Shown here: positions 27,501-44,842 of the stretch, one piece after another
Layout of the letters: each line of letters opens with the position of its first letter
Position numbering within the stretch: the first letter of the stretch is position 1
Assembly: GCA_963667035.1 (NCBI GenBank)
Contig: OY762964.1
Span: forward strand, 1,536,001-1,600,000
Direction of reading: 5' to 3'
Length of the DNA stretch: 64,000 nt
Source: Candidatus Cloacimonadales bacterium
Lineage (GTDB): Bacteria > Cloacimonadota > Cloacimonadia > Cloacimonadales > JAFGVF01
Notes under the pieces: generated by a model
Seen by the model: the letters and a program-made list of their open reading frames with translations, nothing else
Database searches by the model: none
Told to the model about the DNA's origin: nothing
Translations under genes and position numbers: made by a program

Positions 27501-27590
27501 AAATTCCCCTTTCAATTTGTTTACAACTCTTTCTCAAGTGTTATTATCAATGAAAGGCATCTTTCGTTGCATGTCAAGCGTTAAAAGAAG

Positions 27591-28827
27591 CTGGCATCCC
27601 CCCGTTTTTTATCATAAGCATGTCATCTGCTCCCATTCTGCATGACAACCTTGATACTTTGGAACAAAGTAATGCTTCCAATCTCTGAATAGATTTTTAA
27701 CAACAACCGATAGTCTGTAGTAGATAAACTTACATAATTCCTTTAGATTACTCTTTTTACTAAGCATAATGTGTTGATACATTTCCGCAAAGTCGTATCG
27801 ATACTTATCCAAAGAATAAAGATAACTGACTGCCAATAATAACATGCAGTTCAGATTTCTTAACCTGTCCAATGTCATAACCTGCATATCTTCCCACGAA
27901 TACTCCTGCTTCACATGACGGTGTACTTCTTCTACTTTCCAGCGGAGACGATACCCTCTTATTGCAGTTGTTATCAACTCCAAATCACTAAGGTCTCGAT
28001 TGGGGAAATCACAGTTCAAATAGAAAAAACCTTTGACGCGAATGATATATGAAGCCTCATTCTCTGTTAAATAGTTGATTACTACCTTATCATCATAACC
28101 TCTATCCATTACATATATCCCTTTATTTCCTGAATACACCTGAATATCATTGATCCGATCAAACACAGACTGTTTCAGTATGCCCGGATCTTCGTCGTTA
28201 GTATGCAATTCAGACACAAGAGGACGTATCTCAAGCGAATGACCTTCTTTTGATACTCTGATTATATCTAATACTTCATAACCGTTACACCACTCGCCTG
28301 TACTGCCGTCTCTAACTCTGGTTAATCCTTCCATCTTCTTTGAATGGCTTTTCATTATGTCGCTGGGATCAATGACTATCAGGTCATAAGATGCTATCTT
28401 CTTGCTTTCACAAATCAGATGAATATTTGATAGATTTTTGTACAACTCAGGTTTTGATAAATGACGACGATATCGTTCGCAGAGCTTTTCTAATGAGATA
28501 TTCACTTCATGGCTCATTGCAATCCTTCTGATTATACAACTACCGGATTTCAAAATGCCACTGACAAGCTCTTTTACAAATTTCTTCTCTTTGATAGTAC
28601 AGCTATGTGTGACTTTGTTGATGAATTTTGAAAATTTAGCTTGCAGATTATGCTTTTTTATTATTGATAGTTCCATATAGTGAGTTCCTTTTGTTTTATT
28701 TTAAGCGTAACAACAATAAATAGGGACTCACTCTTTTCAAGCTTTTTCTTGACTATTTTTATACTTAAATTACCACTTTTTCAGTCACTTATTATGACCA
28801 TTATTCTAAATTTCGGGGGGATGCTTG
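27591..28827 (-). mobile_element. IS4-family insertion sequence (1237 bp)
   Basis: Terminal IRs CTGGCATCCCCCCG / CAAGCATCCCCCCG, and a 10-bp target duplication TTAAAAGAAG at 27581-27590 and 28828-28837. Confidence 0.9.
27612..28676 (-). CDS. IS4-family DDE transposase, probably internally deleted
   Basis: IDPS, DRGY and the Y-2-R-3-E-6-K motif (YRLRWKVEEVHRHVK). Confidence 0.85.
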   Translation of the reverse strand: MELSIIKKHNLQAKFSKFINKVTHSCTIKEKKFVKELVSGILKSGSCIIRRIAMSHEVNISLEKLCERYRRHLSKPELYKNLSNIHLICESKKIASYDLIVIDPSDIMKSHSKKMEGLTRVRDGSTGEWCNGYEVLDIIRVSKEGHSLEIRPLVSELHTNDEDPGILKQSVFDRINDIQVYSGNKGIYVMDRGYDDKVVINYLTENEASYIIRVKGFFYLNCDFPNRDLSDLELITTAIRGYRLRWKVEEVHRHVKQEYSWEDMQVMTLDRLRNLNCMLLLAVSYLYSLDKYRYDFAEMYQHIMLSKKSNLKELCKFIYYRLSVVVKNLFRDWKHYFVPKYQGCHAEWEQMTCL

Positions 28828-28898
28828 TTAAAAGAAGCTCTTTATGTTGCACCTACATGCTATTTCGCTTTAGCATACCATTGTGATTTATGATCAAG

Positions 28899-28924
28899 AA
28901 AAGCCCGGACTGCTCCGGGCTTTT
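28899..28924 (-). terminator. Terminator of the A-B-C operon
   Basis: AAAAGCCCGGA-ctgc-TCCGGGCTTTT. A near copy lies at 35540-35567. Confidence 0.8.
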
Positions 28925-28940
28925 AAATATATGTTTTAGG

Positions 28941-31900
28941 CTATTTGAGTAACAACATTTTCTTAGTAATTGATTTCTTAGAAGTCTCTAATCTATAGAA
29001 GTAAACTCCTGATCCTGTTTCTTTACCTAAACTATTTTTCCCATCCCACACTATTTCATGCCTTCCAACGGACATCTCCTGATTAACCAATGTAGCGACT
29101 TTCTGTCCCTTAATATTATAGACAGAAAGTTTTACCATAGTCTCTTTTGGAATTGAGAATGAGATTGTGGTTATTGGATTGAATGGGTTGGGATAGTTGT
29201 TACTTAGCTCAACCCACTTTGGAATAGCAAAACCATCATTAAAATCCTTATCAAAACTGACTAAATGGTAGTCAGTAGTGAATGGTTGTATTGGCTCATC
29301 TACAAACCATTCTGTATCTTCATTGTAAACGAAATAGTTATTCATGCTTTTACGATCTTTCTGTTGAGTGATCAATTCAAAATGGATTTGAGAGTTTGAT
29401 TTTGCAGATACAATATCTGTATATGCTAGTATTTGGGTTTTCCCTTCATCAACAAAAGATGACCCAACGCATGTATCACCAATATATGCACCGATCTCTA
29501 CTATATCGTCATCAATATCAATAATGTCAATCGCTTCATAATCATCTGTCTTTTTATATACAAATGTATCAGATTCTTTTACAATCACAGGACTTTTTGT
29601 TGGTACTTGAGTTCCTAAATTCCATCTAAAATCCTCAATTCGCTCTTTTACTCTCACTATATAACCTCTACCGAAATTTAGCGGTCTTATATTATGGCTT
29701 AATGGTATCGTTAGGTCATCTTTTTTTAGCGAGTTTTGGGGAGTATCCTTTTTATAATACCAAAGTTCTGATTTTATAGATGCTACTTTACTAAAATCAT
29801 TTCCAAAGGCTGCATCCATATCCTGACTATTTCTCCAATAACCAACCCAATTATCAACTCCTGGTTCTAAAGTGACGTCATGATGTTGAATTTCATAACC
29901 ATCGCTAAATTGAATACAGTATTGGTTATCATTTCTATTCATCTCCAATTTGTAGGATGATAATGGAGAGAAGGAAAAGCTCGGATTATCTAAAATCCAT
30001 TGATTGTTAATATAATTCAATCCTCCATCATCACTTTTGATAGACAGCCCGAAGGGATTAAGCAATTGGAAAATATACTCATTATCAGCTCCAACAAATA
30101 AGTATGGGAATGAAATCCAGTTCCAACCATTATGTAGTGCGGTAAAAGCTGAAATAGGAATCACTATTTCAGGATTATATATATCATTTGTATTTATAGT
30201 CAGTTCTCCAAAGTAATCTTTATACATTTTGTGGGGAGTGATCTTTACTTTGAAACAAAGACTATCACTTGGAGGAATAACACTTGGAAGTGAAATAATC
30301 TCTAAAACATTACTTAATTGAGCACTTACTGTATGTGAAGTAATCTGAAGATTATTTTGATCTGAATTATTCCGAATCCAGATTTTTCTAACATATCCTC
30401 CATCAGGTATGATGTTCCCAAAGCAGATTTCTGCATTTGAAGTTGATACTGCAGCTCCATCTTGAAAATACTCAACTGCTCCAACATCAATATTCCCGCC
30501 AAGAACTCGAAGGTTATTCAAGACATCTGTATAGGGGAAGGTTACCCCCATTTCATATGATGACTCAATATCTTCTACCGATGAGCCTGAGTTATAACAT
30601 GATGAATTAGTTGAAATTTGAAAACCATCAATTATATTAATTCCTCCTACAATAGAAGATATGGGGTTATAATCTACATTATTCCAGTTATGCCATACAC
30701 CTAAAGGATATTCATAACCCGTTACAATTCCGCCATTATTCCCGGTATCAAAAGCATTATGATTGAAAAATAATGCTGGAGTTATAGTGCAAGCTGTCTT
30801 AATAAGAAAATCTGTTGATCCACTAGTAATATTCGCAGTATTGTTACTAAAGATGTTATTTACAAAGTTGTAAGTTGAAGAAGGTAAATCCTGATAAAAA
30901 CACCCTCCCCAGTTAATTGAATTATTTTGGGTAAAAGTATTATTAACAAACAATATAGGCCCTCTGTTGTCTATATTTAATTCCCCATTTCTTCCATTAA
31001 TATAGAAAGCTCCACCGTTATACGAAAAATTATCAACAAACACATTTGATACAAACTCTTTTCGGAAAGTTAAATCACTTTCATAAAGATATACGGCACC
31101 TCCCGCACAGTTTGAATTTATCGCAGGGGATGTACTTTCGAATCCTGTCACCTTCCCATTCCCTTCAAAATAACAATTTACAACACTTAAATCAGCATGT
31201 TGGCACCATATAGCACCTCCCTCGACTGCATCATTATTAATAAACTCACAGTTGGCAAAATTTACTTGTACCCTTGCTTGATTAAGTTCATTATGGGAAT
31301 ATTCATGGCTATCAATATATACAGCTCCTCCTGAATAAGCAGTGTTATTTTCGAATCTGCACCTATTAAAATCAACATTTATCTCTGTTTCTGATGCAGC
31401 GTTTACAATTATTGCTCCCCCAGTATGAGATTCAGGTTCATCTTGTGTGTTTCCTTGAGTTTCGCAGGATAAAAAGTTACAATTATCAAATAAAACATTC
31501 TTCCCTGATTCATCAAAGCCCCAAATAGAGCCAATATAAACTGCAGTTTTCGCATCCGTAAAATTAACATTTCTGAATTCAGAGTCAGCTGAACTTTCGG
31601 ATTGAAGGAAGTTAATACCTTTCCAGCTATTACCATCAATCCCTGTAAAAGATACAGGATTATTTTCAGTACCAATAACTTTGATACGACCGAGCACAGC
31701 AATAGCACAAAACTGCTCAATAGATATATTTAAATCTTCATTTGGATTTAGAGATTGAATAATAAGCTGAGTATTCTCTGGTATGCTAATCTTCGAATGT
31801 GGCCTTCCATAAATATCTACACCTAAAAGTACATATAGATTTCCTAATGTTTCATGCCCAATAATATCGTCGGGGAAAGTCATATCTTGGGTGATATAGA

Positions 31901-33401
31901 AAGTTTGGTCGAATGAATTATCATCATATCGTGAAACAGTTTTCTTTAAGTAATTGTGGTATCTTTGCTTTGCTGCATTTTTATCATGTTCCGGATTATA
32001 TGGCCAACTCTGATTGGAATACCAAAATCCGGGAGCGCTTGATCTGTTTGCAAGGTAGTATGATTGATCATTTTTTACTTCATTGGATGAACAATATGGA
32101 ATACTATGTGACCATGTTTGAGTATATGTAAAACCGAAAAAAGAAACTTTTTTTATTCGATTATGTCGTTCGAATGGTTTAAAATAACTTCTAAACCTTC
32201 TCGGGAACTTTAAAAAATTGCTTTGAAACCAGTTTACATTTTGAAGATAATTGTAATTTGTGATTTGTCTGGGTTGCATAACCCAGTCACAAGCGTCCGT
32301 GCAACTCATTAGCATTTCTAACAAACTCGGTATAAATGGAGATATCCCCCATGTACCGACTCCCATTATCCATAAACCTTTATCGGAAGACCTATTTCTA
32401 AAGAAAGCATTGTCTTTGCCATTAGCTCTATGGAAAGAATCTACCCACATCCATCCGACTTGATTTCCTTCAAAAAGGTTTTCTTTAGGACCTCCATATT
32501 GTCCTCCAGATTGAGAACTTGTCTCCCCATGGCAGCTAATATCTGCTACATAAGAATTAGGTAAATAATCAAAATCAGAATGCCTCCTTCCTGTTGAATA
32601 ATTATATCCGTAAACATTCCATTTTGCTTCATTTTGCACTAGCATTGCGTGTCTCATACTGTAAAAGATGTTATTTTCTATTAAGCAGTGCTGAGATGCA
32701 TTTTCAGTGATTACACCGTATCCAAACCCTCCGGCACCAACGTCCTGAGCTCCTTTAAAGTAGCAACCTGTTACTTCAATATGTTCACTCTTACTTATGT
32801 CTATATGATGCTTAACTGGATTTCGACTCTCAACCCCGACTACCCAACAGTTTGACGCTTTTTGGATAAGAATGTTATGTCCTTGCTGACTATCTAAGCC
32901 ATCTGAATGTGTACTATCTAACCGTTCAATTACAATATCTTCAATACCGGAAGAGACCAATATATGCTCTTGTACAGGTGGAGTTTGGTTTGGCTTCGCT
33001 TCTACTCCCTTGATTTCTATGCAATTATTAGTATTTGCCATATCAAATCGTAAAACTGTTCTGTTAGCATTATTCTCTCCATCCTTGAACATGTGATTGC
33101 CTCTTAATACAACATAGTCAGCTAATACTAGCTCATCAGTAAATAAATATTCACCAGGAGAAAGTATTACCCTGCGAATAGCTGATGAATTTCCAGACAC
33201 TAACAATGCTGATCTAATATCTTCTTCAGTATTAGTAGTGTTAAAAGGATAATCTACAAAATTAACGGGAAAACCATTTTCAAGTCCGGCCTGTTGCCAC
33301 TCATGACTTTTATTATTAACATGGCTGTATTCGGTATCATAAACAGAAAATAAGAAATATAAATTAATTAGAAATAGTATCGCGAGTATATATTTTTTCA
33401 T
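28941..33401 (-). CDS. Large secreted beta-helix protein (gene C) with GGA(I/V)/FxxN repeats, Ig-like region and FlgD/T9SS-type sorting domain
   Basis: Signal peptide, pectate-lyase-like N-terminal beta-helix (GYGV, CLIENNIF..MRHAM), Pmp-like GGAI/GGAV repeats, NYPNPFNP...WDGK...SGVYFYRL...KKMLLLK. Confidence 0.75.
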   Translation of the reverse strand: MKKYILAILFLINLYFLFSVYDTEYSHVNNKSHEWQQAGLENGFPVNFVDYPFNTTNTEEDIRSALLVSGNSSAIRRVILSPGEYLFTDELVLADYVVLRGNHMFKDGENNANRTVLRFDMANTNNCIEIKGVEAKPNQTPPVQEHILVSSGIEDIVIERLDSTHSDGLDSQQGHNILIQKASNCWVVGVESRNPVKHHIDISKSEHIEVTGCYFKGAQDVGAGGFGYGVITENASQHCLIENNIFYSMRHAMLVQNEAKWNVYGYNYSTGRRHSDFDYLPNSYVADISCHGETSSQSGGQYGGPKENLFEGNQVGWMWVDSFHRANGKDNAFFRNRSSDKGLWIMGVGTWGISPFIPSLLEMLMSCTDACDWVMQPRQITNYNYLQNVNWFQSNFLKFPRRFRSYFKPFERHNRIKKVSFFGFTYTQTWSHSIPYCSSNEVKNDQSYYLANRSSAPGFWYSNQSWPYNPEHDKNAAKQRYHNYLKKTVSRYDDNSFDQTFYITQDMTFPDDIIGHETLGNLYVLLGVDIYGRPHSKISIPENTQLIIQSLNPNEDLNISIEQFCAIAVLGRIKVIGTENNPVSFTGIDGNSWKGINFLQSESSADSEFRNVNFTDAKTAVYIGSIWGFDESGKNVLFDNCNFLSCETQGNTQDEPESHTGGAIIVNAASETEINVDFNRCRFENNTAYSGGAVYIDSHEYSHNELNQARVQVNFANCEFINNDAVEGGAIWCQHADLSVVNCYFEGNGKVTGFESTSPAINSNCAGGAVYLYESDLTFRKEFVSNVFVDNFSYNGGAFYINGRNGELNIDNRGPILFVNNTFTQNNSINWGGCFYQDLPSSTYNFVNNIFSNNTANITSGSTDFLIKTACTITPALFFNHNAFDTGNNGGIVTGYEYPLGVWHNWNNVDYNPISSIVGGINIIDGFQISTNSSCYNSGSSVEDIESSYEMGVTFPYTDVLNNLRVLGGNIDVGAVEYFQDGAAVSTSNAEICFGNIIPDGGYVRKIWIRNNSDQNNLQITSHTVSAQLSNVLEIISLPSVIPPSDSLCFKVKITPHKMYKDYFGELTINTNDIYNPEIVIPISAFTALHNGWNWISFPYLFVGADNEYIFQLLNPFGLSIKSDDGGLNYINNQWILDNPSFSFSPLSSYKLEMNRNDNQYCIQFSDGYEIQHHDVTLEPGVDNWVGYWRNSQDMDAAFGNDFSKVASIKSELWYYKKDTPQNSLKKDDLTIPLSHNIRPLNFGRGYIVRVKERIEDFRWNLGTQVPTKSPVIVKESDTFVYKKTDDYEAIDIIDIDDDIVEIGAYIGDTCVGSSFVDEGKTQILAYTDIVSAKSNSQIHFELITQQKDRKSMNNYFVYNEDTEWFVDEPIQPFTTDYHLVSFDKDFNDGFAIPKWVELSNNYPNPFNPITTISFSIPKETMVKLSVYNIKGQKVATLVNQEMSVGRHEIVWDGKNSLGKETGSGVYFYRLETSKKSITKKMLLLK

Positions 33402-33410
33402 TGTTTCTCC

Positions 33411-34418
33411 CTAAAAATCATATGGATGTTGTCTTTGAGTCTTGCTTATTAATCTTGTGCTGTTTTTATTAAACGAGACCTTTCCCGATTGACGATCAAA
33501 TTTAACATAATCGCCAGTCTGCATAAAATACATTAGCGGATATTCTTGGGAACCGCATAGGCAAATGTTTTCTTTGGATGTATCTAACACTAAGTAGGAA
33601 TAAGCTCTCTGAGTGGATTCAATAAACAAAACCTGTGAATCTAAGCTATTGATGTCTATCTGCAAAAGAGTGCGTGAAGCCTGTAGAAGATATATAGAAT
33701 TATCATAGTCTGTTATCATATCAACAAGCGAGCTATCGTTATAAACAAGGCTATCAATACCAGTAATTATATCATAACAGTATAAACCATCTGGTTTGAC
33801 ATCTGGAGTGCTTGAAATCAAATAAAAAACTTTATCTGAAACAATACATTTATCACTAATATTAATGTAATTGTCATTCTCTTCCCTTATTAGCTCTGTT
33901 TCGGTATTATTGGTCAAATCATATATAAGCAGAGCCCCAGAACGAACCTCCTGATTATAAATAGATCTACTATAAACTAACTTCGTATTATCAGTAGAAA
34001 TTGAAGCATCATGCTCTCTGATATCAGGGGTATTAGTAATCTGTATTAGATTCGACCCGTCAACATTGGCAATGTAGATATCATAATTGTATTCCATTAC
34101 CATTTTAGTTCTGTCCTGACTTATTTCGACAATATTCCCTACACCTAATAAGATACCTTCCCATAAAGTTCCTTCGGAATTGAGTGAGTAAACAGAACTG
34201 AAACCGCTAATGATAATCTTTTCCTGCTCTGGATTACTTAAGTCTGCTACATAGAAAGGAGACCCTCCCCCTGCAAATAGGTAATCAATCTCACTTCCAT
34301 CAATATTCATGGTAGCAGTCCATTCTTCGGACCAGTACTTACCCTCATCTGAATAATCAAAACACGAAGTTAAAAGAAGCAACAACACTAAAATCACGAA
34401 TGATTTAATGTATCTCAT
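33411..34418 (-). CDS. TolB-like beta-propeller lipoprotein (gene B, copy in the intact operon)
   Basis: Lipobox LLTSC and the PD40-like motif DIYIANVDGSNLIQITNTP..E..ASIS.D. Confidence 0.7.
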   Translation of the reverse strand: MRYIKSFVILVLLLLLTSCFDYSDEGKYWSEEWTATMNIDGSEIDYLFAGGGSPFYVADLSNPEQEKIIISGFSSVYSLNSEGTLWEGILLGVGNIVEISQDRTKMVMEYNYDIYIANVDGSNLIQITNTPDIREHDASISTDNTKLVYSRSIYNQEVRSGALLIYDLTNNTETELIREENDNYINISDKCIVSDKVFYLISSTPDVKPDGLYCYDIITGIDSLVYNDSSLVDMITDYDNSIYLLQASRTLLQIDINSLDSQVLFIESTQRAYSYLVLDTSKENICLCGSQEYPLMYFMQTGDYVKFDRQSGKVSFNKNSTRLISKTQRQHPYDF

Positions 34419-34420
34419 TA

Positions 34421-35164
34421 TTAGTCCCCTCTTCGAAATTCAATCAACTCAAGTGCACTACTCTTCACAAAGCCTTTGTTTTGTTGATTTAAGATTTCAA
34501 GCGAATTCAACATTCCCAATGTAACTCCCGTAAATGGGATTAGTTTGGGTATATCCTCCGAAAAGTACAAAGAGGCTTCTTTCTCAATTTGCTCAAGTTG
34601 GTCCTGAGCTAATTTTTGCTTATACATTTCAGGTATTTCCATATTTACTTTTGTACAGGTTATATCTCTGGAGTTAACCGAGACAGCATATTCTGCTCTG
34701 TCATTTTGAGAAAAACTGAAAGGCATTAAAGCGGCTGCCTGTTCTCTAACTAAACTGAAATTGGCTTCAACCTCGCTCTTGCGTAACAGCTTTGGTGTTT
34801 GCTTGACCTTATTTTCATCATAACCATAAAAATCGACTATCTGATTAGAAACCGGGTCCCAAGTTGTGTAAGTTATATTCCCATCAAAAGATTCCTTAAT
34901 AACAATACCTTTACTCGACTCTTCAATTACTTCTAAGCTGACAAACTCTTCGCTTTGATTTTCACTTGAGAGGTCGCTATTGACACGATAGACTACCTTG
35001 TCCCCGACCTTCAAATCAATACCAAAACGGCTCCCGGCTGTGTATTGAAGTGTGCTCAACATATCCTTTTGTGCTTGTTCTTCAATCTCTCTGTCAGATA
35101 GTTCTTTTGCTACAAGAAACAACACTGTTGACAGTACTAGTGCAATTAAGACAAATTTCTTCAT
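34421..35164 (-). CDS. Exported hypothetical protein (gene A)
   Basis: Signal peptide MKKFVLIALVLSTVLFLVA, RBS AGGAG. No recognisable family. Confidence 0.7.
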   Translation of the reverse strand: MKKFVLIALVLSTVLFLVAKELSDREIEEQAQKDMLSTLQYTAGSRFGIDLKVGDKVVYRVNSDLSSENQSEEFVSLEVIEESSKGIVIKESFDGNITYTTWDPVSNQIVDFYGYDENKVKQTPKLLRKSEVEANFSLVREQAAALMPFSFSQNDRAEYAVSVNSRDITCTKVNMEIPEMYKQKLAQDQLEQIEKEASLYFSEDIPKLIPFTGVTLGMLNSLEILNQQNKGFVKSSALELIEFRRGD

Positions 35165-35252
35165 AAATGCTCCTTTGTTTTCCGAATCGATTACTTAGAC
35201 TAATTAATAGGCTAAATTGTTGTACGATTCGCTTATTAGATTTCCATACTAT

Positions 35253-35546
35253 TTATTTTGAATTTGAGACACAAATACAACATATAGTATGATTATTTTA
35301 CCTTCCCATACCTACAGTAAATCAACTTTTGTCTTTCTTTCCTAGAATTGTGTAGCAATGTTAGTAATGATAAATTACATGGCAAGTATTTATTCATTTT
35401 TTCTTGCATCGCTTCATAGGACTATTTAGAGATTTCGCTTATCTTTCACCCCTTTAAGGTTTAATCATATTTAGGGGATACACGCCCCATGCGACAAGTG
35501 CATGGGGCTATTAAACAATAGCTCCTTCAGAGCAAAATTAAAAAAG
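35253..35546. repeat. About 294-bp duplicated upstream/promoter region (copy of 42204-42496)
   Basis: Near-identical sequence, including a GCCCCATGC...GCATGGGGC REP-like hairpin. Confidence 0.9.
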
Positions 35547-35569
35547 CCCGGACTGTTCCTGGCTTTTAA

Positions 35570-35707
35570 ATAGAAGTCTCTAATCTATAGAAGTAAACTC
35601 CTACTCCTGTTTCTTTACCTAAACTATTTTTCCCATCCCACACTATTTCATGCCTTCCAACGGACATCTCCTGATTAACCAAATGTAGCGAGTAAAATCT
35701 TCTTCAT
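35570..35707 (-). pseudogene. Collapsed remnant of gene C (start joined directly to C-terminal sorting domain)
   Basis: RBS + ATG AAG AAG ATT TTA CTC GCT ACA, then DNA matching about 28979-29098 (LVNQEMSVGRHEIVWDGKNSLGKETG.GVYFYRLETS) out of frame, then a terminator copy. Confidence 0.85.
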
Positions 35708-35717
35708 TGTTTCTCCT

Positions 35718-36743
35718 TTAAAAATCATCTGGATGTCGTCTTGAGATAACGCTAATTATTTTTGTACTGTTTAAATTAAAAGTAGCATATCCAATAGGCT
35801 TCGGTAAGTAAAATATATCTCCGGTTTTCATAGAGTAAATCCAATCATTTCCATTGTTTGTATCTCCACAAAATGCAAGGTATTCGTAAGTTGGATTGAA
35901 GCTCAATACGCCTCGAAATCCAACTCCTTTACCACCTATCAAGTCATGACTGGCAAAAGTATTAATATCCATTTCCACAATACCTTCAGAAGAAGCCAAG
36001 AAATAAACTGCATCCGTGCTATTTGATATAATATTTCCGGTTGAAGAACAGGAATACACCAGAGAATCAGTAAGCGTTGACATATTTAAGTTATATATTC
36101 CTCTTGGTTTTACATTCAATTCATACCATTTATAGTAAAAAATCTTATCAGAGATAATGCATTTCTCTCGAATAAATGTATGCTTTTCAGTTTCTTCGCG
36201 TAAGAGAATAGTCTCTGTATCAGTATTAAGGTTGTATCCATTAATTGAAATCCAATTCAATTCATCTGGATCAAGAGCATTTAAAGGCCATTGATTATAC
36301 ACAACCATCGAGTTATCTGCAGAAATAGAGGCAAAATCCTCTCTCAGGTCAGGTGTATTTGTAAGGTTTCTAAGTCCGGTACCATCGACATTAGCAACAT
36401 AGATATCATAATTATACTCCATTACCATTTTAGTTCGGTCCTGACTTATTTCGACAATATTCCCTACATCTAATAAGATACCTTCCCACAAAGTTCCTTC
36501 GGAATTGAGTGAATAAACAGAACTGGAACTGCTCATGATAATCTTTTCCTGCCCTGGATTACTTAAGTCTGCTACATAGAAAGGAGTTTGTGCACCTTTT
36601 AGTAGGTAATCAATCTCACTCCCATCAATATTCATGGTAGCAGTCCATTCTTCGGACCAGTACTTACCCTCATCTGAATAATCATAACAGGAGGTTATAA
36701 GAAGTAATAGCAATAGAATCGCTATTGATTTTATAAATCGCAT
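35718..36743 (-). CDS. Gene B variant 5 (beta-propeller lipoprotein)
   Basis: Lipobox LITSC. Paralog of 33411-34418 with a divergent C-terminal half. Confidence 0.8.
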   Translation of the reverse strand: MRFIKSIAILLLLLLITSCYDYSDEGKYWSEEWTATMNIDGSEIDYLLKGAQTPFYVADLSNPGQEKIIMSSSSSVYSLNSEGTLWEGILLDVGNIVEISQDRTKMVMEYNYDIYVANVDGTGLRNLTNTPDLREDFASISADNSMVVYNQWPLNALDPDELNWISINGYNLNTDTETILLREETEKHTFIREKCIISDKIFYYKWYELNVKPRGIYNLNMSTLTDSLVYSCSSTGNIISNSTDAVYFLASSEGIVEMDINTFASHDLIGGKGVGFRGVLSFNPTYEYLAFCGDTNNGNDWIYSMKTGDIFYLPKPIGYATFNLNSTKIISVISRRHPDDF

Positions 36744-36745
36744 AA

Positions 36746-37027
36746 TTAATTTCCTTTTATGAATTCTACTAATTCAAGGACGCTACTCTTCACAAAGCCT
36801 TTGTTTTGTTGATTTAAGGTTTCAAGCGAATTCAACATTCCCAATGTAACTCCCGTAAATGGGATTAGTTTGGGTATATCCTCAAAAAGAGTAGGGAAAT
36901 CGTTCTCTAAACCAGCAGACTGCCACTGGTGACTCTCATTATTAACATGGCTGTATTCGGTATCATAAACAGAAAATAAGAAATATAAATTAATTAGAAA
37001 TAGTATCGTGAGTATATATTTTTTCAT
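36746..37027 (-). CDS. Chimeric 93-aa linker ORF (5' of gene C fused to 3' of gene A)
   Basis: MKKYIL...GLENDFPTLF from C joined to EDIPKLIPF...EFIKGN from A. Confidence 0.75.
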   Translation of the reverse strand: MKKYILTILFLINLYFLFSVYDTEYSHVNNESHQWQSAGLENDFPTLFEDIPKLIPFTGVTLGMLNSLETLNQQNKGFVKSSVLELVEFIKGN

Positions 37028-37035
37028 TGTTCCCC

Positions 37036-38049
37036 TTAAAAATCATATGGATGTTGTCTTTGGGTTGTGCTTATTAATCTTGTACTGTTTTTATTAAACG
37101 AGACCTTTCCCGATTGACGATCAAATTTTACATAATCACCTGTCTGTATAAAATACATTAGCGGATATGCTTCGGAATCGCATAAACAAATGTTTTCTTT
37201 GGATGGGTCTAACACTAATTCGTTATAATATCTCTGAGTGGATTCAATAAACAATACCTGAGAATCAAAGCTATTCATGTCTATTTGCAAAAGAGTGCGC
37301 GAAGCCTGTAGAAGATATACAGAATTATCATAGTCTGTTATCATATCAACAAGCGAGCTATCGTTATAAACAAGGCTATCAATACCAGTAATTATATCAT
37401 AACAGTATAAACCATCTGGTTTGACATCTGGAGAGCTTGAGATTGAATAGAATATCTTATTTGAGGCAACGCATGTATCTCTTATTCTAAGATAATTGCT
37501 ATTGCTATTCTCTTCTCGTAACAGTTCTGTCTCAGTATTCTCCATCAAATCATATATAAGCAGAATCTCAGAACGAACCTCCTGATTATTAATATATCGA
37601 CTATAAACAATTTGTGAGTTATCAGCAGAAATTGAAGCATCATGCTCTCTGATATCAGGGGTATTAGTAATCTGTATTAGATTCGATCCGTCAACATTGG
37701 CAATGTAGATATCCAGATTATATTCCATCAACATTTTTGTTCTGTCCTGACTTATTTCAACAATGTTTCCCATATCTGTAAGGATATTATCCCCCAAAGT
37801 TCCATCTTCATTCATGGATAATACTGCTGTGTTAGCACCAATAATGATTCTCTCTTCTTCCGGATTGTCTAAATCTGCAACATAATAAGGAGTGCCTCCC
37901 CACTGAATCAGGAATTTTCTTTCACTTCCGTCAATATTCGTGGTAGCAATCCATGATTCTGTCCAGTGTTTACCCTCATCTGAATAATCAAAACACGAAG
38001 TCATAAGAAGCAACAACACTAAAATCACGAATGATTTAATGTATCTCAT
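37036..38049 (-). CDS. Gene B variant 4
   Basis: Lipobox LMTSC, mosaic paralog of B. Confidence 0.8.
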   Translation of the reverse strand: MRYIKSFVILVLLLLMTSCFDYSDEGKHWTESWIATTNIDGSERKFLIQWGGTPYYVADLDNPEEERIIIGANTAVLSMNEDGTLGDNILTDMGNIVEISQDRTKMLMEYNLDIYIANVDGSNLIQITNTPDIREHDASISADNSQIVYSRYINNQEVRSEILLIYDLMENTETELLREENSNSNYLRIRDTCVASNKIFYSISSSPDVKPDGLYCYDIITGIDSLVYNDSSLVDMITDYDNSVYLLQASRTLLQIDMNSFDSQVLFIESTQRYYNELVLDPSKENICLCDSEAYPLMYFIQTGDYVKFDRQSGKVSFNKNSTRLISTTQRQHPYDF

Positions 38050-38051
38050 TA

Positions 38052-38333
38052 TTAGTCCCCTCTTCGAAATTCAATCAACTCAAGTGTACTACTCTTCACA
38101 AAGCCTTTGCTTTGTTGATTTAAGGTTTCAAGCGAATTCAACATTCCCAATGTAACTCCCGTAAATGGGATTAGTTTGGGTATATCCTCAAAAAGAGTAG
38201 AGAAATCGTTCTCTAAACCAGCAGACTGCCATTGGTGACTTTTATTATTAACATGGCTGTATTCGGTATCATAAACAGAAAATAAGAAATATAAATTAAT
38301 TAGAAATAGTATCGTGAGTATATATTTTTTCAT
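38052..38333 (-). CDS. Chimeric C'::'A linker ORF
   Basis: Same junction as 36746-37027, ends EFRRGD. Confidence 0.75.
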   Translation of the reverse strand: MKKYILTILFLINLYFLFSVYDTEYSHVNNKSHQWQSAGLENDFSTLFEDIPKLIPFTGVTLGMLNSLETLNQQSKGFVKSSTLELIEFRRGD

Positions 38334-38341
38334 TGTTCCCC

Positions 38342-39352
38342 CTAAAAATCATATGGATGTTGTCTTTGGGTTGTGCTTATTAATCTTGTGCTGTTTTTAT
38401 TAAACGAGACCTTTCCCGATTGACGATCAAATTTTACATAATCACCTGTCTGTATAAAATACATTAGCGGATATTTTTGGGAACCGCATAAGCAAATGTT
38501 TTCTTTGGATGGACCTAACACTAAGTAGGAATAAGATCTCTGAGTGGGTTCAATATACAAAACCTGTGAATCTAAGCTATTGATGTCTAACTGCAAAAGA
38601 GTGCGTGAAGCCTGTAGAAGATATACAGAATTTTCATAGTCTGTTATCATATCAACAAGAGAGCTATCGTTATAAACAAGGCTGTCAATCCCTGTATCAA
38701 TATCGATACAATATAGTCCTTTCGGTTTTGTCTCTGATACACTAAATTTAAAATAGTAATATACTTTATTAGAAACTATACATGTATTATTAACTGAGAA
38801 ATCTGTGATGTTATCTACTCGCATCAGTTCTGTCTCAGTATTCTCCATCAAATCATATATAAGCAGAGTCTCAGAACGAACCTCCTGATTATAAATATAT
38901 CTACTATAAACTAACTTCGTATTATCAGCAGAAATTGAAGCATCATGCTCCCAAATATCCGTTGTATTTGTAATGTTTCTAAGTCCGGTACCATCGACAT
39001 TAGCGACATAGATATCATAATTGTATACCATTACCATTTTGGTTCGGTCTTGACTTATTTCAACAATATTTCCCACATCCGTCAGAACATAATCTCCAAC
39101 AGTTCCGTCCTCATTCAGAGATAATACTGCATGGAAAGCATCAATAATGATCCTCTCCTCTCCAGGATTGTCCAAATCTGCAACATAATAAGGAGTTCCT
39201 CCCCACTGAATCAGGAATTCTCTTTCACTTCCGTCAATATTCGTGGTGGCAATCCATGATTCTGTCCAGTATTTACCCTCATCTGAATAATCAAAACAGG
39301 AGGCCAAAAGAAGTAATAGCAATAGAATCGCTATTGATTTTATAAATCGCAT
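38342..39352 (-). CDS. Gene B variant 3
   Basis: Lipobox LLASC, mosaic paralog of B. Confidence 0.8.
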   Translation of the reverse strand: MRFIKSIAILLLLLLLASCFDYSDEGKYWTESWIATTNIDGSEREFLIQWGGTPYYVADLDNPGEERIIIDAFHAVLSLNEDGTVGDYVLTDVGNIVEISQDRTKMVMVYNYDIYVANVDGTGLRNITNTTDIWEHDASISADNTKLVYSRYIYNQEVRSETLLIYDLMENTETELMRVDNITDFSVNNTCIVSNKVYYYFKFSVSETKPKGLYCIDIDTGIDSLVYNDSSLVDMITDYENSVYLLQASRTLLQLDINSLDSQVLYIEPTQRSYSYLVLGPSKENICLCGSQKYPLMYFIQTGDYVKFDRQSGKVSFNKNSTRLISTTQRQHPYDF

Positions 39353-39354
39353 AA

Positions 39355-39636
39355 TTAATTTCCTTTTCTGAATTCTACTAATTCAAGGACGCTACTCTTC
39401 ACAAAGCCTTTGCTTTGTTGATTTAAGATTTCAAGCGAATTCAACATTCCTAATGTAACTCCCGTAAATGGGATTAGTTTGGGTATATCCTCAAAAAGAG
39501 TAGGAAAATCGTTCTCTAAACCAGCAGACTGCCATTGGTGACTTTTATTATTGATATGGCTGTATTCGGTATCATAAACCGGATGGATCAGGTTTGATGA
39601 AATTGCTAATAAGATTATAATAATAATTCTTTTCAT
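39355..39636 (-). CDS. Chimeric C'::'A linker ORF with a different signal-peptide allele
   Basis: True start is ATG 39636 (MKRIIIIILLAISSNLIHPVYDTEYSH), 93 aa. The track's extension to 39810 overlaps B2 and is spurious. Confidence 0.72.
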   Translation of the reverse strand: MKRIIIIILLAISSNLIHPVYDTEYSHINNKSHQWQSAGLENDFPTLFEDIPKLIPFTGVTLGMLNSLEILNQQSKGFVKSSVLELVEFRKGN

Positions 39637-39646
39637 TGTTGCCCCT

Positions 39647-40663
39647 TTAAAAATCTTGAGGGAAAAATCTTTCAACAACACAAACAATATGTGTAGCTTC
39701 ACTATTGAAAGAAGCATCTCGTATGCTTCTTGGATTATAGTAATACTCATCAGTGCTGATATCGTACATGAAATCATTCTTTTGTGAATTACTAATACAT
39801 AAATATTCATTATGCGGGCTTATGATGAGATCAATAGGATTACCGATTACTTTACTTTCTCCAATATATCCCTGTATGATGAAAGTCTGTAAATCAATTT
39901 CAATTACTGATTGAGTAGAAAGGTTAGCAAAATAAAAGACATCAGTATAATCACTTACGATGTTGCTATTGACATAATTATCATAAACTTTAATATTCTC
40001 ATTATTGTTTAAATCAATTCTAAACAATCCTTCATTTTCCTCTTCATCGTAATATGTTCTATAGAAATACACATAATCCTGTAAAACATAGATCTTTTCA
40101 TAAATAAAATAACTGTTTCGTTCTTCTTGAAAAAGTTTTGTTGATATATCAATATTTAAATCGTATAGATTCAATGAAATAACATAATAGTTATCAATAA
40201 TCGATTCGTTCCGGACAAAGACTACTTTATTGTTATCAGCAGAAATTGCTGCATTTCGTTCTGATAAATTTGGAGTATTCGTAATATTCCTCAATCCAGT
40301 TCCATCGACATTGGCAATGTAGATATCTTGATTATATTCCAATAATATCTTGGTTTTATCACGACTAACTTCAACAATATTTCCTACTTCTGACAAAACT
40401 GTTTCCTGTTTAGAGCCATCAGTATTCATTGAAACAATATATTCGCTATAATCAAGAAGTATCTTCTCGTTTGTTGTATCACTCAGGTCTTTAACATAAA
40501 AAGGTGTCATATCACCTTTAAAAAGGTAATTTACCTCACTTCCATCAATATTCATGGTGGCAATCCATGATTCTGTCCAGTGCTTACCCTCATCTGAATA
40601 ATCATAACACGAAGTCATAAGAAGCAACAACACTAAAATCACGAATGATTTAATGTATCTCAT
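39647..40663 (-). CDS. Gene B variant 2 (most divergent)
   Basis: Lipobox LMTSC, shared N-terminus, unique body, ends ERFFPQDF. Confidence 0.8.
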   Translation of the reverse strand: MRYIKSFVILVLLLLMTSCYDYSDEGKHWTESWIATMNIDGSEVNYLFKGDMTPFYVKDLSDTTNEKILLDYSEYIVSMNTDGSKQETVLSEVGNIVEVSRDKTKILLEYNQDIYIANVDGTGLRNITNTPNLSERNAAISADNNKVVFVRNESIIDNYYVISLNLYDLNIDISTKLFQEERNSYFIYEKIYVLQDYVYFYRTYYDEEENEGLFRIDLNNNENIKVYDNYVNSNIVSDYTDVFYFANLSTQSVIEIDLQTFIIQGYIGESKVIGNPIDLIISPHNEYLCISNSQKNDFMYDISTDEYYYNPRSIRDASFNSEATHIVCVVERFFPQDF

Positions 40664-40665
40664 TA

Positions 40666-40947
40666 TTAGTCCCCTCTTCGAAATTCAATCAACTCAAGTG
40701 TACTACTCTTCACAAAGCCTTTGCTTTGTTGATTTAAGGTTTCAAGCGAATTCAACATTCCCAATGTAACTCCCGTAAATGGGATTAGTTTGGGTATATC
40801 CTCAAAAAGAGTAGGGAAATCGTTCTCTAAACCAGCAGACTGCCATTGGTGACTTTTATTATTAACATGGCTGTATTCGGTATCATAAACAGAAAATAAG
40901 AAATATAAATTAATTAGAAATAGTATCGTGAGTATATATTTTTTCAT
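40666..40947 (-). CDS. Chimeric C'::'A linker ORF
   Basis: Same junction, ends EFRRGD. Confidence 0.75.
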   Translation of the reverse strand: MKKYILTILFLINLYFLFSVYDTEYSHVNNKSHQWQSAGLENDFPTLFEDIPKLIPFTGVTLGMLNSLETLNQQSKGFVKSSTLELIEFRRGD

Positions 40948-40956
40948 TGTTTCTCC

Positions 40957-41964
40957 CTAAAAATCATATGGATGTTGTCTTTGAGTCTTGCTTATTAATC
41001 TTGTGCTGTTTTTATTAAACGAGACCTTTCCCGATTGACGATCAAATTTTACATAATCACCTGTCTGTATAAAATACATTAGAGGATATGCTTCGGAATC
41101 ACATAGACAAATGTTTTCTTTGGATGGGTCTAACACTAAGTCGTTATAATATCTCTGAGTGGATTCAATAAACAATACCTGAGAATCAAAGCTATTCATG
41201 TCTATTTGCAAAAGAGTGCGTGAAGCCTGTAGAAGATATATAGAATTATCATAGTCTGTTATCATATCAACAAGCGAGCTATCGTTATAAACAAGGCTAT
41301 CAATACCAGTAATTATATCATAACAGTATAAACCATCTGGTTTGACATCTGGAGTGCTTGAAATCAAATAAAAAACTTTATCTGAAACAATACATTTATC
41401 ACTAATATTAATGTAATTGTCATTCTCTTCCCTTATTAGCTCTGTTTCGGTATTATTGGTCAAATCATATATAAGCAGAGCCCCAGAACGAACCTCCTGA
41501 TTATAAATAGATCTACTATAAACTAACTTCGTATTATCAGCAGAAATTGAAGCATCATGCTCTCTGATATCAGGGGTATTAGTAATCTGTATTAGATTCG
41601 ATCCGTCAACATTGGCAATGTAGATATCCAGATTATATTCCATCAACATTTTTGTTCTGTCCTGACTTATTTCAACAATGTTTCCCATATCTGTAAGGAT
41701 ATTATCCCCAAAAGTTTCATCATCATTCAAATATGATACTGATATGTAGTTATCAATAATAACCTTTTCTTCTCCCGGATTGTCCAAATCTGCAACATAA
41801 AAAGGAGGACCACCACCCTTAGCTAAGTATTCAATCTCACTTCCATCAATATTCATAGTAGCAGTCCATTCTTCGGACCAGTACTTACCCTCATCTGAAT
41901 AATCAAAACAGGAGGTCAAAAGAAGTAATAGCAATAGAATCGCTATTGATTTTATAAATCGCAT
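40957..41964 (-). CDS. Gene B variant 1
   Basis: Lipobox LLTSC. Central region nearly identical to 33411-34418. Confidence 0.8.
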   Translation of the reverse strand: MRFIKSIAILLLLLLLTSCFDYSDEGKYWSEEWTATMNIDGSEIEYLAKGGGPPFYVADLDNPGEEKVIIDNYISVSYLNDDETFGDNILTDMGNIVEISQDRTKMLMEYNLDIYIANVDGSNLIQITNTPDIREHDASISADNTKLVYSRSIYNQEVRSGALLIYDLTNNTETELIREENDNYINISDKCIVSDKVFYLISSTPDVKPDGLYCYDIITGIDSLVYNDSSLVDMITDYDNSIYLLQASRTLLQIDMNSFDSQVLFIESTQRYYNDLVLDPSKENICLCDSEAYPLMYFIQTGDYVKFDRQSGKVSFNKNSTRLISKTQRQHPYDF

Positions 41965-41966
41965 AA

Positions 41967-42188
41967 TTAATTTCCTTTTATGAATTCTACTAATTCAAGG
42001 ACGCTACTCTTCACAAAGCCTTTGTTTTGTTGATTTAAGGTTTCAAGCGAATTCAACATTCCCAATGTAACTCCCACAAATGGAATTAATTTAGGGATGC
42101 TCTCCGAAAAATACAAAGAGGCTTCTTCCTCAATTTGCTCAAGTTGGTCCTGAGCTAATTTTTGCTTATACATTTCAGGTATATCCAT
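41967..42188 (-). pseudogene. 5'-truncated copy of gene A (last 73 aa)
   Basis: MDIPEMYKQKLAQDQLEQIEEEASLYFSE... matches the C-terminus of 34421-35164. The signal peptide and N-terminal 174 aa are missing. Confidence 0.85.
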
Positions 42189-42490
42189 GATTAAGCAAAA
42201 TACTTATTTTGAATTTGAGACACAAATACAACATATAGTATGATTATTTTGCCTTCCCATACCTACAGTAAATCAACTTTTGTCTTTCTTTCCTAGAATT
42301 GTGTAGCAATGTTAGTAATGATAAATTACAAGGCAAGTATTTATTCATTTTTTCTTGCATCGCTTCATAGGACTATTTAGAGAATTCGCTTATCTTTCGC
42401 CTCTTTAAGGTTTAATCATATTTAGGGATACACACCCCATGCGACAAGTGCACGGGGCTATTAAACGGTAGCTCCTTCAGAGTAAAATTG

Positions 42491-42516
42491 AAAAAGGGAA
42501 GCAAAATACTTCCCTT
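42491..42516 (-). terminator. Terminator after pyrF
   Basis: AAGGGAAG-caaaata-CTTCCCTT with an adjacent A-run (T-run on minus strand). Confidence 0.65.
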
Positions 42517-42537
42517 CTCTTATATATTGGATTAATA

Positions 42538-43337
42538 CTATCGAATATGTGAGTTGATCTCTTTTCTCAGCTTATCAGCTTCCTGACCTGCAACTTCGGC
42601 AAATCTCTCCGATTTATCTTTGAAGATAATACCTCTGGATGAGTTAATTAAGATGCGCAAGTCGCCAGGATTAGCTCCTGCGTGTTTAACAACTGCTTCT
42701 ACACTTCCACCTTGAGCTCCGATACCCGGAACGAGGAATAGTGTATTAGGCATTATTGCTCTGAGGTCAGATAACTCTTCAGTATTTGTACCGCCGACAA
42801 CCGCACCTGCTTGTTCCATTGGAAGCTCAGCCAGTTTCTCGGAGATACGTTTGTATAAATCCTGAGGTTTCAGATAATCCGCTGAAGTAGGATTAGATGT
42901 TAACGCAAGTGAGAAAAAGAATTTATCCTCAAAAGCCAATAATGGCTTATAAACATCATGTCCCATGAGAGGATTACAAGTTATAGCATCAACTTTCCAA
43001 GTCTCAAAGAAAGCTTTTGCATATTGCGTCATTGTATTACCGATATCTCCGGTTTTAACATCAAGTATAACAGGGATGTTATCAGGAATATAATCTAAGG
43101 TAAGCTCAAGAGCTTCAAGTCCCATCTTACCTGCAGATAAATAAAACGCAAAGTTAGGTTTATATGCAGCGGTATAAGTTTGGGTTGCATCAATGATAGC
43201 TTTATTAAAAGCAAAGATAGGATTAGCTTCATCCATCACACAATCAGGTAACTTGGTAATATCACTATCAAGTCCTACGCATACGTAAGAATTGTTTTCT
43301 TTAATAATGTTTCTATACTTAGTCCAAAAACTCATCA

Positions 43338-43904: not shown

Positions 43905-44389
43905 TTAATTACTACTTCAAAGTTACGTCAAGGATAAATTGTTCTTGTTGTTTCCCATACTACTTTATGAAGTGTGTTTCCTTTTCCATTAGCATCTGCA
44001 CAACTTGGAAATTAACTCTTATAAATCTCCGGTCCTCCCGATTTTTCATTGTTTTATCGTTTTTTTCTCGTGACCAATAACCACATCCAACTGGCAAGAC
44101 TCTTGCATAATCCTTGCATAAATCATGCATAATTATGTAAGAAAGTTGTAAGCATTTTGTGACATTGATGTTCCGATTTTGTGTTTGTTAATCATGGCTA
44201 AATCAGGAGAAAAAAGCGAGAAATTCTAAAAAGTTCCGAATAGCATACACTAAAATAGCAATTCTATGCCCTCTAATTTATATGGGAGATTTAAAATAGT
44301 TGTGATTTACCAGAGTGAAAATCGCATTTCCCGGAGTTATATATAATAGAGGAAACATATATCCTCAAAAAAGTGAAATGGAGGAAATT

Positions 44390-44842
44390 ATGAAACTTAG
44401 TCTGTTACCTTTATTGACCGGTTTATCAGGTAGACTTGGTAAACTTGTCTTTTGTATCGAGAAGAGTTCCGGTGCCTGTTGGACACGCTATTATGTTTAT
44501 CCTGAATTGACTGAACATAACCACAATATCGGGAGTGTCGGTAAGAATATGAGCATTATCTATCACTCAGCGAATATCGGTTATATCGAGGACCTGAAAA
44601 ACTATGTCGATAGGTATAATCTGAGTGGCTTCGGTAGTAACGGAAGATTGAGAGCGTTTACCTGCTTCACGAAGATGCTCTATAACTTAAAGAAATCACA
44701 CGAATCCGTTAACCTTAAGACCCTGACAATTGAGCAAATCATGAACGACGACCTTCCGGTTCGCTCAATTAAAGAAGCTATTGATAATCAGTTGTTACCT
44801 GCTGTGAGTCGGTATCAGGAACTGAATGTCTTAATTGTGTGA
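44390..44842 (+). CDS. Hypothetical protein (150 aa), N-terminus reminiscent of DUF6266-type G(L/F)SG(R/K)(L/V)G proteins
   Basis: GGAGG RBS before ATG 44390, TGLSGRLGKLVF motif, degraded paralog at 54413-54590. Family label is tentative. Confidence 0.6.
   Translation: MKLSLLPLLTGLSGRLGKLVFCIEKSSGACWTRYYVYPELTEHNHNIGSVGKNMSIIYHSANIGYIEDLKNYVDRYNLSGFGSNGRLRAFTCFTKMLYNLKKSHESVNLKTLTIEQIMNDDLPVRSIKEAIDNQLLPAVSRYQELNVLIV

Follow-up and report, generated by a model that had tools for sequence, protein, structure and literature searches.

A 64,000-nucleotide (nt) stretch of the genome of a Candidatus Cloacimonadales bacterium (assembly GCA_963667035.1, contig OY762964.1, positions 1,536,001 to 1,600,000; hereafter the window) carries a compact operon of three genes, here called A, B and C. 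A encodes a secreted protein, B a predicted lipoprotein and C a very large predicted cargo of the type IX secretion system (T9SS). A decayed second copy of the operon precedes it on the same strand and holds five additional B genes. This array is probably a set of expressed B paralogs that was built by segmental duplication, unequal crossing-over and gene conversion.

Organisation of the locus

The genome (G000) is a single 3.1-Mb contig, and all copies in the window lie on the minus strand. Open reading frame (ORF) calls and repeat comparison gave the order upstream copy, 'A fragment, B1-F1-B2-F2-B3-F3-B4-F4-B5, collapsed C and terminator, followed by a second upstream copy, A-B0-C and a terminator. 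F stands for short fusion ORFs and B0 for the B gene of the intact operon. An earlier note, made from the sequence, had described this anatomy with repeat units of 1301-1311 bp, and both were reproduced; the start-to-start spacings in the array are 1306, 1303, 1311 and 1301 nt. A chance origin of the 1.3-kb repeats is ruled out by their length and level of identity. Tandem Repeats Finder gave no rows for the array, its period limit of 500 nt being smaller than the unit, and Rfam had no match in the locus.

The intact operon comprises A (34421-35164; 247 amino acids, aa), B0 (33411-34418; 335 aa) and C (28941-33401; 1486 aa) behind an upstream region at 35165-35546. The gaps between A and B and between B and C are only 2-10 nt in the module. 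A terminator hairpin with a T-run follows C at about 28897-28920 and is identical to the hairpin behind the collapsed C.

The array starts directly after the pyrF terminator (42519-42491) with its own copy of the upstream, promoter-side region (42196-42496). The duplication of this region had been noted before with a length of 294 bp. It was confirmed at a slightly greater length: ~301 nt are in common (42496-42196 versus 35546-35245; 96-97% identity overall), consisting of a 232-nt block with 97% and a 72-nt block with 92% identity. The 'A fragment (41967-42188) is a 73-codon ORF that matches the C-terminal part of A and has no signal peptide. Its similarity covers A residues 161-246 with one TAA upstream; the A leader and the first 160 codons are deleted. 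At the far end, the collapsed C with its intrinsic terminator (35541-35707) has kept the first 6 codons of C joined to the last ~45 codons, of which 112 nt of the C 3' end are 98% identical. It is frameshifted and carries a further ~50-nt deletion before the terminator.

All six B genes are full-length (335-341 aa) and arranged head-to-tail in one orientation, with proteins 41-88% identical to B0. The observation that A and C were gutted in the duplicate while every B stayed intact and diversified was thus confirmed. B1 (40957-41964; 335 aa) is the copy closest to B0 with 88% identity, followed by B4 (37036-38049; 337 aa) with 80%, B3 (38342-39352; 336 aa) with 75% and B5 (35718-36743; 341 aa) with 55%. 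B2 (39647-40663; 338 aa) is the most diverged copy, with 41% identity to B0, and its C-terminal half shares 22-30% with every other copy.

Between the B genes of the array lie the fusion ORFs F1 (40666-40947), F2 (39355-39636), F3 (38052-38333) and F4 (36746-37027). Each F is an in-frame fusion of two pieces, 132 nt from the start of C and ~147 nt from the end of A, and the A-3' and C-5' flanks described for the B copies are present in each of them. In each F, 93 codons encode the signal peptide and N-terminus of C (44 codons) and a C-terminal module of A (~47 codons). The F head, that is the first 44 codons, represents the C signal peptide plus ~25 mature residues. F3 differs from F1 by 1 nt. 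All four frames are open and begin with a signal-peptide-like segment; that of F2 differs and is still hydrophobic. At the F-B boundary, the F stop codon and the ATG of the next B are 2 nt apart, and the ribosome-binding site of B is located in the retained A tail.

Proposed origin of the array

A history of four steps would account for every joint of the locus. The whole unit, consisting of a hairpin element, the upstream region, A-B-C and the terminator, would first have been duplicated in tandem with the joint in the terminator T-run. Both upstream copies start with the hairpin element directly behind a terminator T-run, and the segmental duplication begins exactly there; the duplicated unit reaches from this element through to the terminator behind C. 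A second event would have joined C codon 44 to approximately codon 200 of A at a short T-rich microhomology, creating an F-B unit of ~1.3 kb. The junction point is identical in F1-F4 (4/4), which points to a single origin of the F joint and its later amplification. Unequal crossing-over would then have multiplied the F-B unit, probably two units at once. This is suggested by two haplotypes of the boundary between A tail and B signal peptide, which alternate along the locus (B1, B3 and B5 versus B2, B4 and B0). Finally, the redundant A and C of the upstream operon copy would have decayed by deletion. Once in place, the near-identical F spacers of ~280 nt would favour more crossing-over and conversion.

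The hairpin element lies in the first ~100 nt of both upstream copies (42435-42457 and 35485-35507). It has the form CCCCATGC-N7-GCATGGGG and is preceded by a GGAGC..GCTCC stem. The element is repeated at at least seven other places in G000, with several of the copies next to an IS200-like Y1 transposase gene (PF01797, E 7e-21; locus L021, G000:C1:1483000-1490000, 2300-4800). Because its copies cluster around this gene, the element looks like a repetitive extragenic palindrome (REP) of a system of REP and REP-associated tyrosine transposase (REP/RAYT) type.

Sequence exchange and selection

The alignments demonstrate gene conversion among the six B copies, the operon copy B0 included, and every B is a mosaic. 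Sliding-window identity between units swings from ~40% to 100% inside single pairs. The longest exact tract comprises 334 nt of B0 and B1, and the same genes are only 60-70% identical a few hundred nt away. Further exact tracts are shared by B4/F3 and B2/F1 (209 nt), B4 and B1 (176 nt), and B5/F4 and B1/'A fragment (156 nt). A run-length test used 807 polymorphic sites and 2000 permutations, and for all 15 pairs no permuted run was as long as the real one; the test takes no account of uneven rates within the gene and thus overstates the result, and the tracts are plain nonetheless. These tracts establish conversion among the copies and stop short of showing that conversion is frequent, directed or regulated.

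The C-terminal halves of B fall into three deeply diverged types (B0/B1/B3/B4, B2 and B5) with 22-35% identity between types. Nearest neighbours shift along the gene and across species. In the sister species G001, the N-terminal third of the only B shares 96% with B5 (versus 80% with B0), its middle part 95% with B4 and its C-terminal half 82% with B1. For G003b, the N-terminal third is nearest to B1 with 81%.

The ratio of nonsynonymous to synonymous substitution rates (dN/dS) was 0.17-0.39 in all 28 whole-gene B pairs, and no copy has a stop codon or a frameshift. By this measure the B copies are under purifying selection. Loop-focused diversifying selection on B was considered and rejected, as strands and loops vary equally and the gene-wide dN/dS is below 0.4. 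Mapped on the predicted model, the variable positions of B0, B1, B3 and B4 amount to 59 of 181 strand and 42 of 129 loop residues. Over all six B, strands have on average 2.29 distinct residues and loops 2.24.

Predicted expression of the array

The array would form a second transcription unit that runs from its own upstream copy to its own terminator and adds five B variants to B0. This reading is based on the presence of an upstream copy, the tight spacing of the genes, ribosome-binding sites before every F and every B, a terminator at the end and none inside. The array upstream copy is 96% identical to that of the operon over 297 nt. Terminators were found at the ends of the array and the operon only; inside, there is none of any strength. 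The inverted repeats near the two upstream copies were short, imperfect, AT-rich pairs only and gave no sign of an invertible promoter.

The B copies are also equipped for translation and export. All six have an ATG, a signal peptide and a lipobox L-L-(T/A)-S-C at residues 15-19. The idea of a silent donor store does not agree with this anatomy, since all five array copies carry start codon, ribosome-binding site, signal peptide and lipobox between their own upstream copy and terminator. For each B, the retained A tail would supply the ribosome-binding site. Ribosomes that load at the strong ribosome-binding site of C would pass through the open F frame to the next B start, and in this way the F frames probably keep translation coupled.

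By analogy, the closest described case is the tandem lipoprotein cluster lpl of Staphylococcus aureus. This cluster is described as having conserved stretches that mediate homologous recombination, incongruent phylogenies of gene parts, an evolutionary unit made of the 3' end of one ORF, a spacer and the 5' end of the next, and a copy number that varies between genomes (Tsuru and Kobayashi 2008, PMC2568036). The B array is alike in its same-orientation tandem lipoprotein paralogs, mosaic parts, units spanning ORF ends and variable copy number. It differs in the protein family, a beta-propeller, and in the phylum, and is represented by one genome of its species. Its spacers are in-frame fusion ORFs from two neighbour genes, and the array is situated in a decayed operon duplicate beside an intact operon.

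The module in other Cloacimonadota

Gene order in related genomes identifies A-B(n)-C as a conserved module of the Cloacimonadota. A-B-C is present in G001, G045, G052 and G005, A-B-B-C in G010, G166 and G228, and A-B-B-B-C in G023. In G210, B-B-C stands behind a different lipoprotein gene. The comparison of B copy number among relatives that the earlier note had suggested gave one to three copies elsewhere versus six in G000: one in G001, G045, G052 and G005, two in G010, G166, G228 and G210, and three in G023. A profile of 20 B sequences found a match (E <= 1e-10) in 37 of 232 genomes of the phylum, and G000 has the most copies. B duplication is recurrent in the phylum, judging from a copy number that varies across lineages and is highest in G000.

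The sister species G001, a member of the same genus, has one operon with 87% identity over 6.6 kb and without the array. Its C orthologue (L013 10950-15467) reads as two ORFs, one of 369 aa that corresponds to C residues 1-355 and one of 1127 aa that corresponds to residues 360-1486. Either the gene is broken near codon 357 or the sequence has an error there. A metagenome scan with the B alignment yielded two loci, the contig of G023 itself and a weak match with 30% identity, and no further strains.

In three of these lineages a stub of the C 5' end follows each extra B: an 85-codon ORF in G210, a 96-codon ORF in G228 and remnants of 38 nt in G023. The stub breakpoints differ from those in G000 and from one another. 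G010 and G166 have tandem B copies 12-15 nt apart without a stub. These observations do not fit a purposeful role of the flanks as homology arms. The flanks would rather be by-products, because gaps of 2-10 nt between A and B and between B and C mean that a duplication of B takes along pieces of its neighbours. The C-5' stubs of all four lineages, G000 included, end within the first ~250 nt of the 4.4-kb C gene. Long stubs may be harmful and become trimmed, the short ones may serve to couple translation, or the N-terminus of C may contain a functional peptide. The two B genes of G210 (L018 5228-7584) encode identical proteins, with the 85-codon stub between them, and represent a very recent duplication of the kind seen in G000.

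Predicted functions of A, B and C

The earlier note did not recognise the protein families, and for A and B this holds at the level of Pfam and NCBIfam: A and likewise F had no family, and B0 had none above threshold. B is a bacterial lipoprotein as predicted from signal peptide and lipobox. Cys19 is the sole invariant column across 20 members of the B family (20/20). Behind the lipobox cysteine, the sequence reads C-F-D-Y-S-D-E with S-D-E at +5 to +7. In Bacteroidota, the export signal of surface-exposed lipoproteins is described as a polar or positive residue and two acidic residues at ~+3 to +5, with a critical position (PMC5080379). The S-D-E of B is off this position, and the export rule was derived outside the Cloacimonadota.

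The B model is an all-beta propeller with a predicted local distance difference test (pLDDT) score of 88.9. Foldseek returned propellers only, that is oligogalacturonate lyase, designed and WD40 propellers and TolB at E 3e-9, with others ranking above TolB. The sole remote sequence matches of B are proteins annotated as TolB or as a Tol system component. PD40 had no match in B0; of the 20 family members, four matched it weakly (best E 6e-4). B has a partial likeness to TolB/PD40 propellers in its all-beta fold, the Foldseek match to TolB and its distant sequence matches. It differs as a lipoprotein that lacks the N-terminal domain of TolB, has its B0 copy below the Pfam thresholds and is encoded beside a T9SS cargo gene and not in a tol-pal operon.

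The model of A, a secreted protein, has a pLDDT of 81 and is weakly LolA/RseB-like in its fold. The best matches were RseB, MucB, DUF1849, CT021 and unclosed barrels of the LolA type. A structural comparison of residues 45-247 (VIA) gave Z scores of 6.7 for RseB (root-mean-square deviation 4.8, 131 aligned), 6.3 for MucB, 5.3 and 5.2 for LolA and 4.6 for LolA3 of P. gingivalis; according to the tool's own note, Z < 8 is possibly just a common arrangement. Foldseek assigned RseB a probability of 0.97 with an E of 0.009, and the ESM Atlas had unnamed clusters and one CT021-domain cluster at 0.91. These models provide a lead towards a LolA-like carrier. The likeness of A to the LolA/LolB/RseB carriers comprises the middling structural matches and a gene position directly upstream of a lipoprotein gene. 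A differs in having no match at the sequence level, its likeness being known from the predicted structure. Bacteroidetes have several LolA/LolB homologues, and one pair is reported to serve lipoproteins of T9SS and gliding (bioRxiv 10.1101/2024.09.13.612696). In view of this pair, a dedicated carrier beside a lipoprotein gene is plausible. A complex prediction for A(23-247) and B0(20-335), both as alignments, scored 0.00 against a mark of 0.32; run without controls, it is uninformative either way.

C is predicted to be a T9SS type A cargo from its sorting domain and the translocon in the genome. Its C-terminal sorting domain matched TIGR04183 (Por_Secre_tail) with 39.2 bits at a cut-off of 23 and PF18962 with 29.9 bits at a cut-off of 27. 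G000 encodes the translocon protein SprA (SprA_N, 51.4 bits). Behind the signal peptide, C has Chlam_PMP repeats and weak matches to right-handed beta-helix or pectate-lyase-like domains within the first 500 residues. A PDB sequence search with C gave a FlgD-like match only (E 0.29). The type A sorting domain has 144 matches in G000, which represents a very large predicted T9SS secretome for a genome of 3.1 Mb. Among the sorting-domain proteins, C alone is accompanied by A and B, and A and close B homologues occur in G000 at this locus only.

Taken at face value, the six B variants probably act as partners or anchors of the surface protein C, or else recognise different ligands at the envelope of the cell. 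A may act as carrier of the B variants.

Alternative explanations

The array could be a donor library for an expression site A-[B0]-C, in which segmental conversion of the RecA type rewrites B0 via the A-3'/C-5' spacers and the conserved 5' part of B. A changing B might, for example, let cells escape phages whose receptor is B or the B-C complex. Donor-cassette systems such as Neisseria pilE/pilS and Borrelia vlsE/vls have silent donors that lack a promoter and are truncated or have no start, frequent one-way conversion to one expression site that shows as variation within a population, and variation confined to exposed loops in a conserved framework. The present case is like them in that a group of diversified copies lies close to one complete locus, conversion has left segmental tracts, and the flanks of each B copy are conserved. 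The exact B1-B0 tract inside otherwise diverged genes fits such rewriting, as does an operon-site B that differs between the sister species and matches array segments. The repeated expansion of B in the phylum, too, suggests selection for B diversity. Against this, the array copies are complete, translatable genes with start codon and signal peptide behind their own upstream copy, variability is not concentrated in loops, and the organism is a free-living anaerobe and has no adaptive immune host. The proposal that B alleles can be swapped into the operon site stands in part. B sequence has moved between array and B0, as recorded by the 334-nt tract, and the species differ in the allele at the site. 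No preference of the exchange for B0 is visible: tracts among array copies (B1-B4 with 176 nt, B2/F1-B4/F3 with 209 nt) are as common as those with B0. The supposed arms arise as side products of B duplication elsewhere in the phylum, and the tandem B copies of G010 and G166 do without them. A Pfam scan of the 28 different ORFs in the window revealed no recombinase, reverse transcriptase or invertase; the sole exception was an IS4 transposase, the only mobile-element gene adjoining the locus. No within-sample variants were seen in reads that are too thin to weigh. A programmed system of this kind is unlikely on balance.

An improbable extension joins two ideas in a working combinatorial device for variation, in a phylum that lacks a cultured model. 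The F spacers and the 5' third of B would anchor a reshuffling of B, B0 included, and F would be a set of new genes for mini-proteins that serve B and were born at the duplication joint. As part of the same doubtful combination, the recurrent C-5' stubs in four lineages would reflect a B-binding peptide at the N-terminus of C.

The F ORFs taken by themselves may form two-gene modules with the B genes. F would then be a secreted mini-protein, made of the N-terminal peptide of C and the C-terminal module of A, which acts as partner or chaperone of the adjacent B, and selection would keep the spacers. The four open frames with their signal-peptide-like starts, including the different one of F2, agree with this idea. 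The retained 47 C-terminal residues of A are the most conserved stretch of the A family (8 homologues), and the C part of F includes the (Y/F)xTEY start seen in C homologues. C-5' stubs persist behind extra B genes in G210, G228 and G023. The proportions of synonymous and nonsynonymous differences (pS, pN) between F head and C are 0.39 and 0.06, and those of the two haplotypes of A-derived F tails are ~0.3 and ~0.06. However, the 'A fragment, without signal and probably dead, has the same low ratio relative to A (pS 0.453, pN 0.094). The low pN/pS of F could therefore be a legacy of functional A and C alleles or a result of conversion. F1, F3 and F4 resemble one another too closely for a selection test. 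No F-like short protein was found outside the window in a set of 5.8 billion proteins, in which all four short matches were the window's own. Translational coupling explains the open frames equally well, and F-B modules under selection seem a rather doubtful explanation.

A small diversified gene array beside a very large secreted protein also has a superficial likeness to the orphan immunity or receptor repertoires of polymorphic toxins, in which each B would match a C allele. In those systems, orphan units consist of a toxin 3' tip and a downstream immunity gene. Here, B is upstream of C and is an exported lipoprotein, the retained pieces are the signal-peptide-encoding 5' ends of C and not variable toxin tips, and the single-B module is conserved across families. 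Neither Pfam nor NCBIfam shows a toxin domain in C, whose C-terminus is a T9SS sorting domain, and an immunity repertoire is very improbable.

A further candidate is an assembly artefact that chained strain variants of one B into a false array; a metagenome-type source, long repeats and a sequence found in one sample only could favour it, yet it is hardly credible for a single 3.1-Mb contig with bridged joints, coherent biological junctions in the form of fusion ORFs and deletions, and copies that differ by up to 59% in protein, far above strain variation. For B2, the 5.8-billion-protein set contains nothing closer than its own neighbours: the seven matches with E <= 0.001 are B2, the five other B of the window and a G003 protein with 38% identity. 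The reads were available as contigs of three runs (X1-X3) from one sample, possibly the assembly source, with a depth of ~1-16; a fourth run had no sequence of the locus. The short-read contigs of X1-X3 match unique parts with 0 differences. They also bridge, with 0 differences, four diagnostic joints: pyrF/upstream copy/'A fragment (42046-42600), B2/F2 (39523-40635), B5/C stub (35653-36467) and terminator of the C stub/upstream copy/A (34529-35600). One X1 contig joins 37509 to 39617 with 12 other letters and a depth unlike its neighbours; it was taken as a repeat-induced or foreign contig and carries no weight.

An expressed array that arose by duplication, crossing-over and conversion has to be weighed against the following points. 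The co-transcription of the array is predicted from sequence features. A scan for sigma-70 promoters found 81 sites versus 67.5 expected from shuffles and is uninformative; promoters of this phylum may be of another type. The array upstream copy lacks the last ~80 nt of the leader, and a clear ribosome-binding site is missing from the 'A fragment. The order of the repeat units depends on a single assembly, the 3.1-Mb contig, and the low-depth contigs of one sample, in which no variant alleles or joints were seen, are too thin to count. The purifying selection on B would equally be expected for silent donors that are expressed after transfer, and an identical tract of 334 nt between array and operon is what a system of donors and expression site would leave. 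The assignment of A as LolA-like is weak, with a Z of 6.7 below the mark of the tool.

Neighbouring features

The locus is surrounded by housekeeping genes, that is pyrF, pyrR, carboxylase subunits and a hydrogenase. The gene of an IS4-family DDE transposase (27612-28676, minus strand) adjoins the C terminator on its downstream side as a neighbour of the locus. Beyond it, a 331-aa lipoprotein with a fibronectin type III domain (26520-27515) is another exported protein nearby. A 175-aa ORF without a Pfam family (44315-44842) is divergent from the locus and is the sole flanking gene in common with the G001 locus (L013 7699-8151; 34.5%, tblastx). In G000, pyrR and pyrF sit between this ORF and the array. 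Elsewhere in the window, two tandem tRNA-Val(TAC) genes with equal scores are located beside tRNA-Pro(TGG) (1594-1862).

Significance

No account of the A-B-C module or the B array was found in searches of the literature on type IX secretion in Cloacimonadota or on lipoprotein gene conversion in Cloacimonas. New are the protein families, the phylum, the in-frame spacers fused from neighbour genes and an operon that exists side by side in a decayed and an intact form. The array in G000 offers a clean record of gene amplification inside a packed operon, with an in-frame joint, amplification of the unit, decay of the neighbours and ongoing conversion. It is also a caution for genome scans, as flanking homology arms may stem from the compactness of an operon and not from switching. 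If populations turned out to overwrite the operon B with array sequence, the locus would be the first variation system of cassette type that is linked to T9SS cargo.

For the Cloacimonadota, the locus defines an undescribed conserved module that combines a weakly LolA-like secreted protein, a propeller lipoprotein and a giant beta-helix protein predicted to be secreted by the T9SS. The repeated, independent duplication of B points to selection on the number or diversity of B in a group known only from metagenomes of anoxic habitats.

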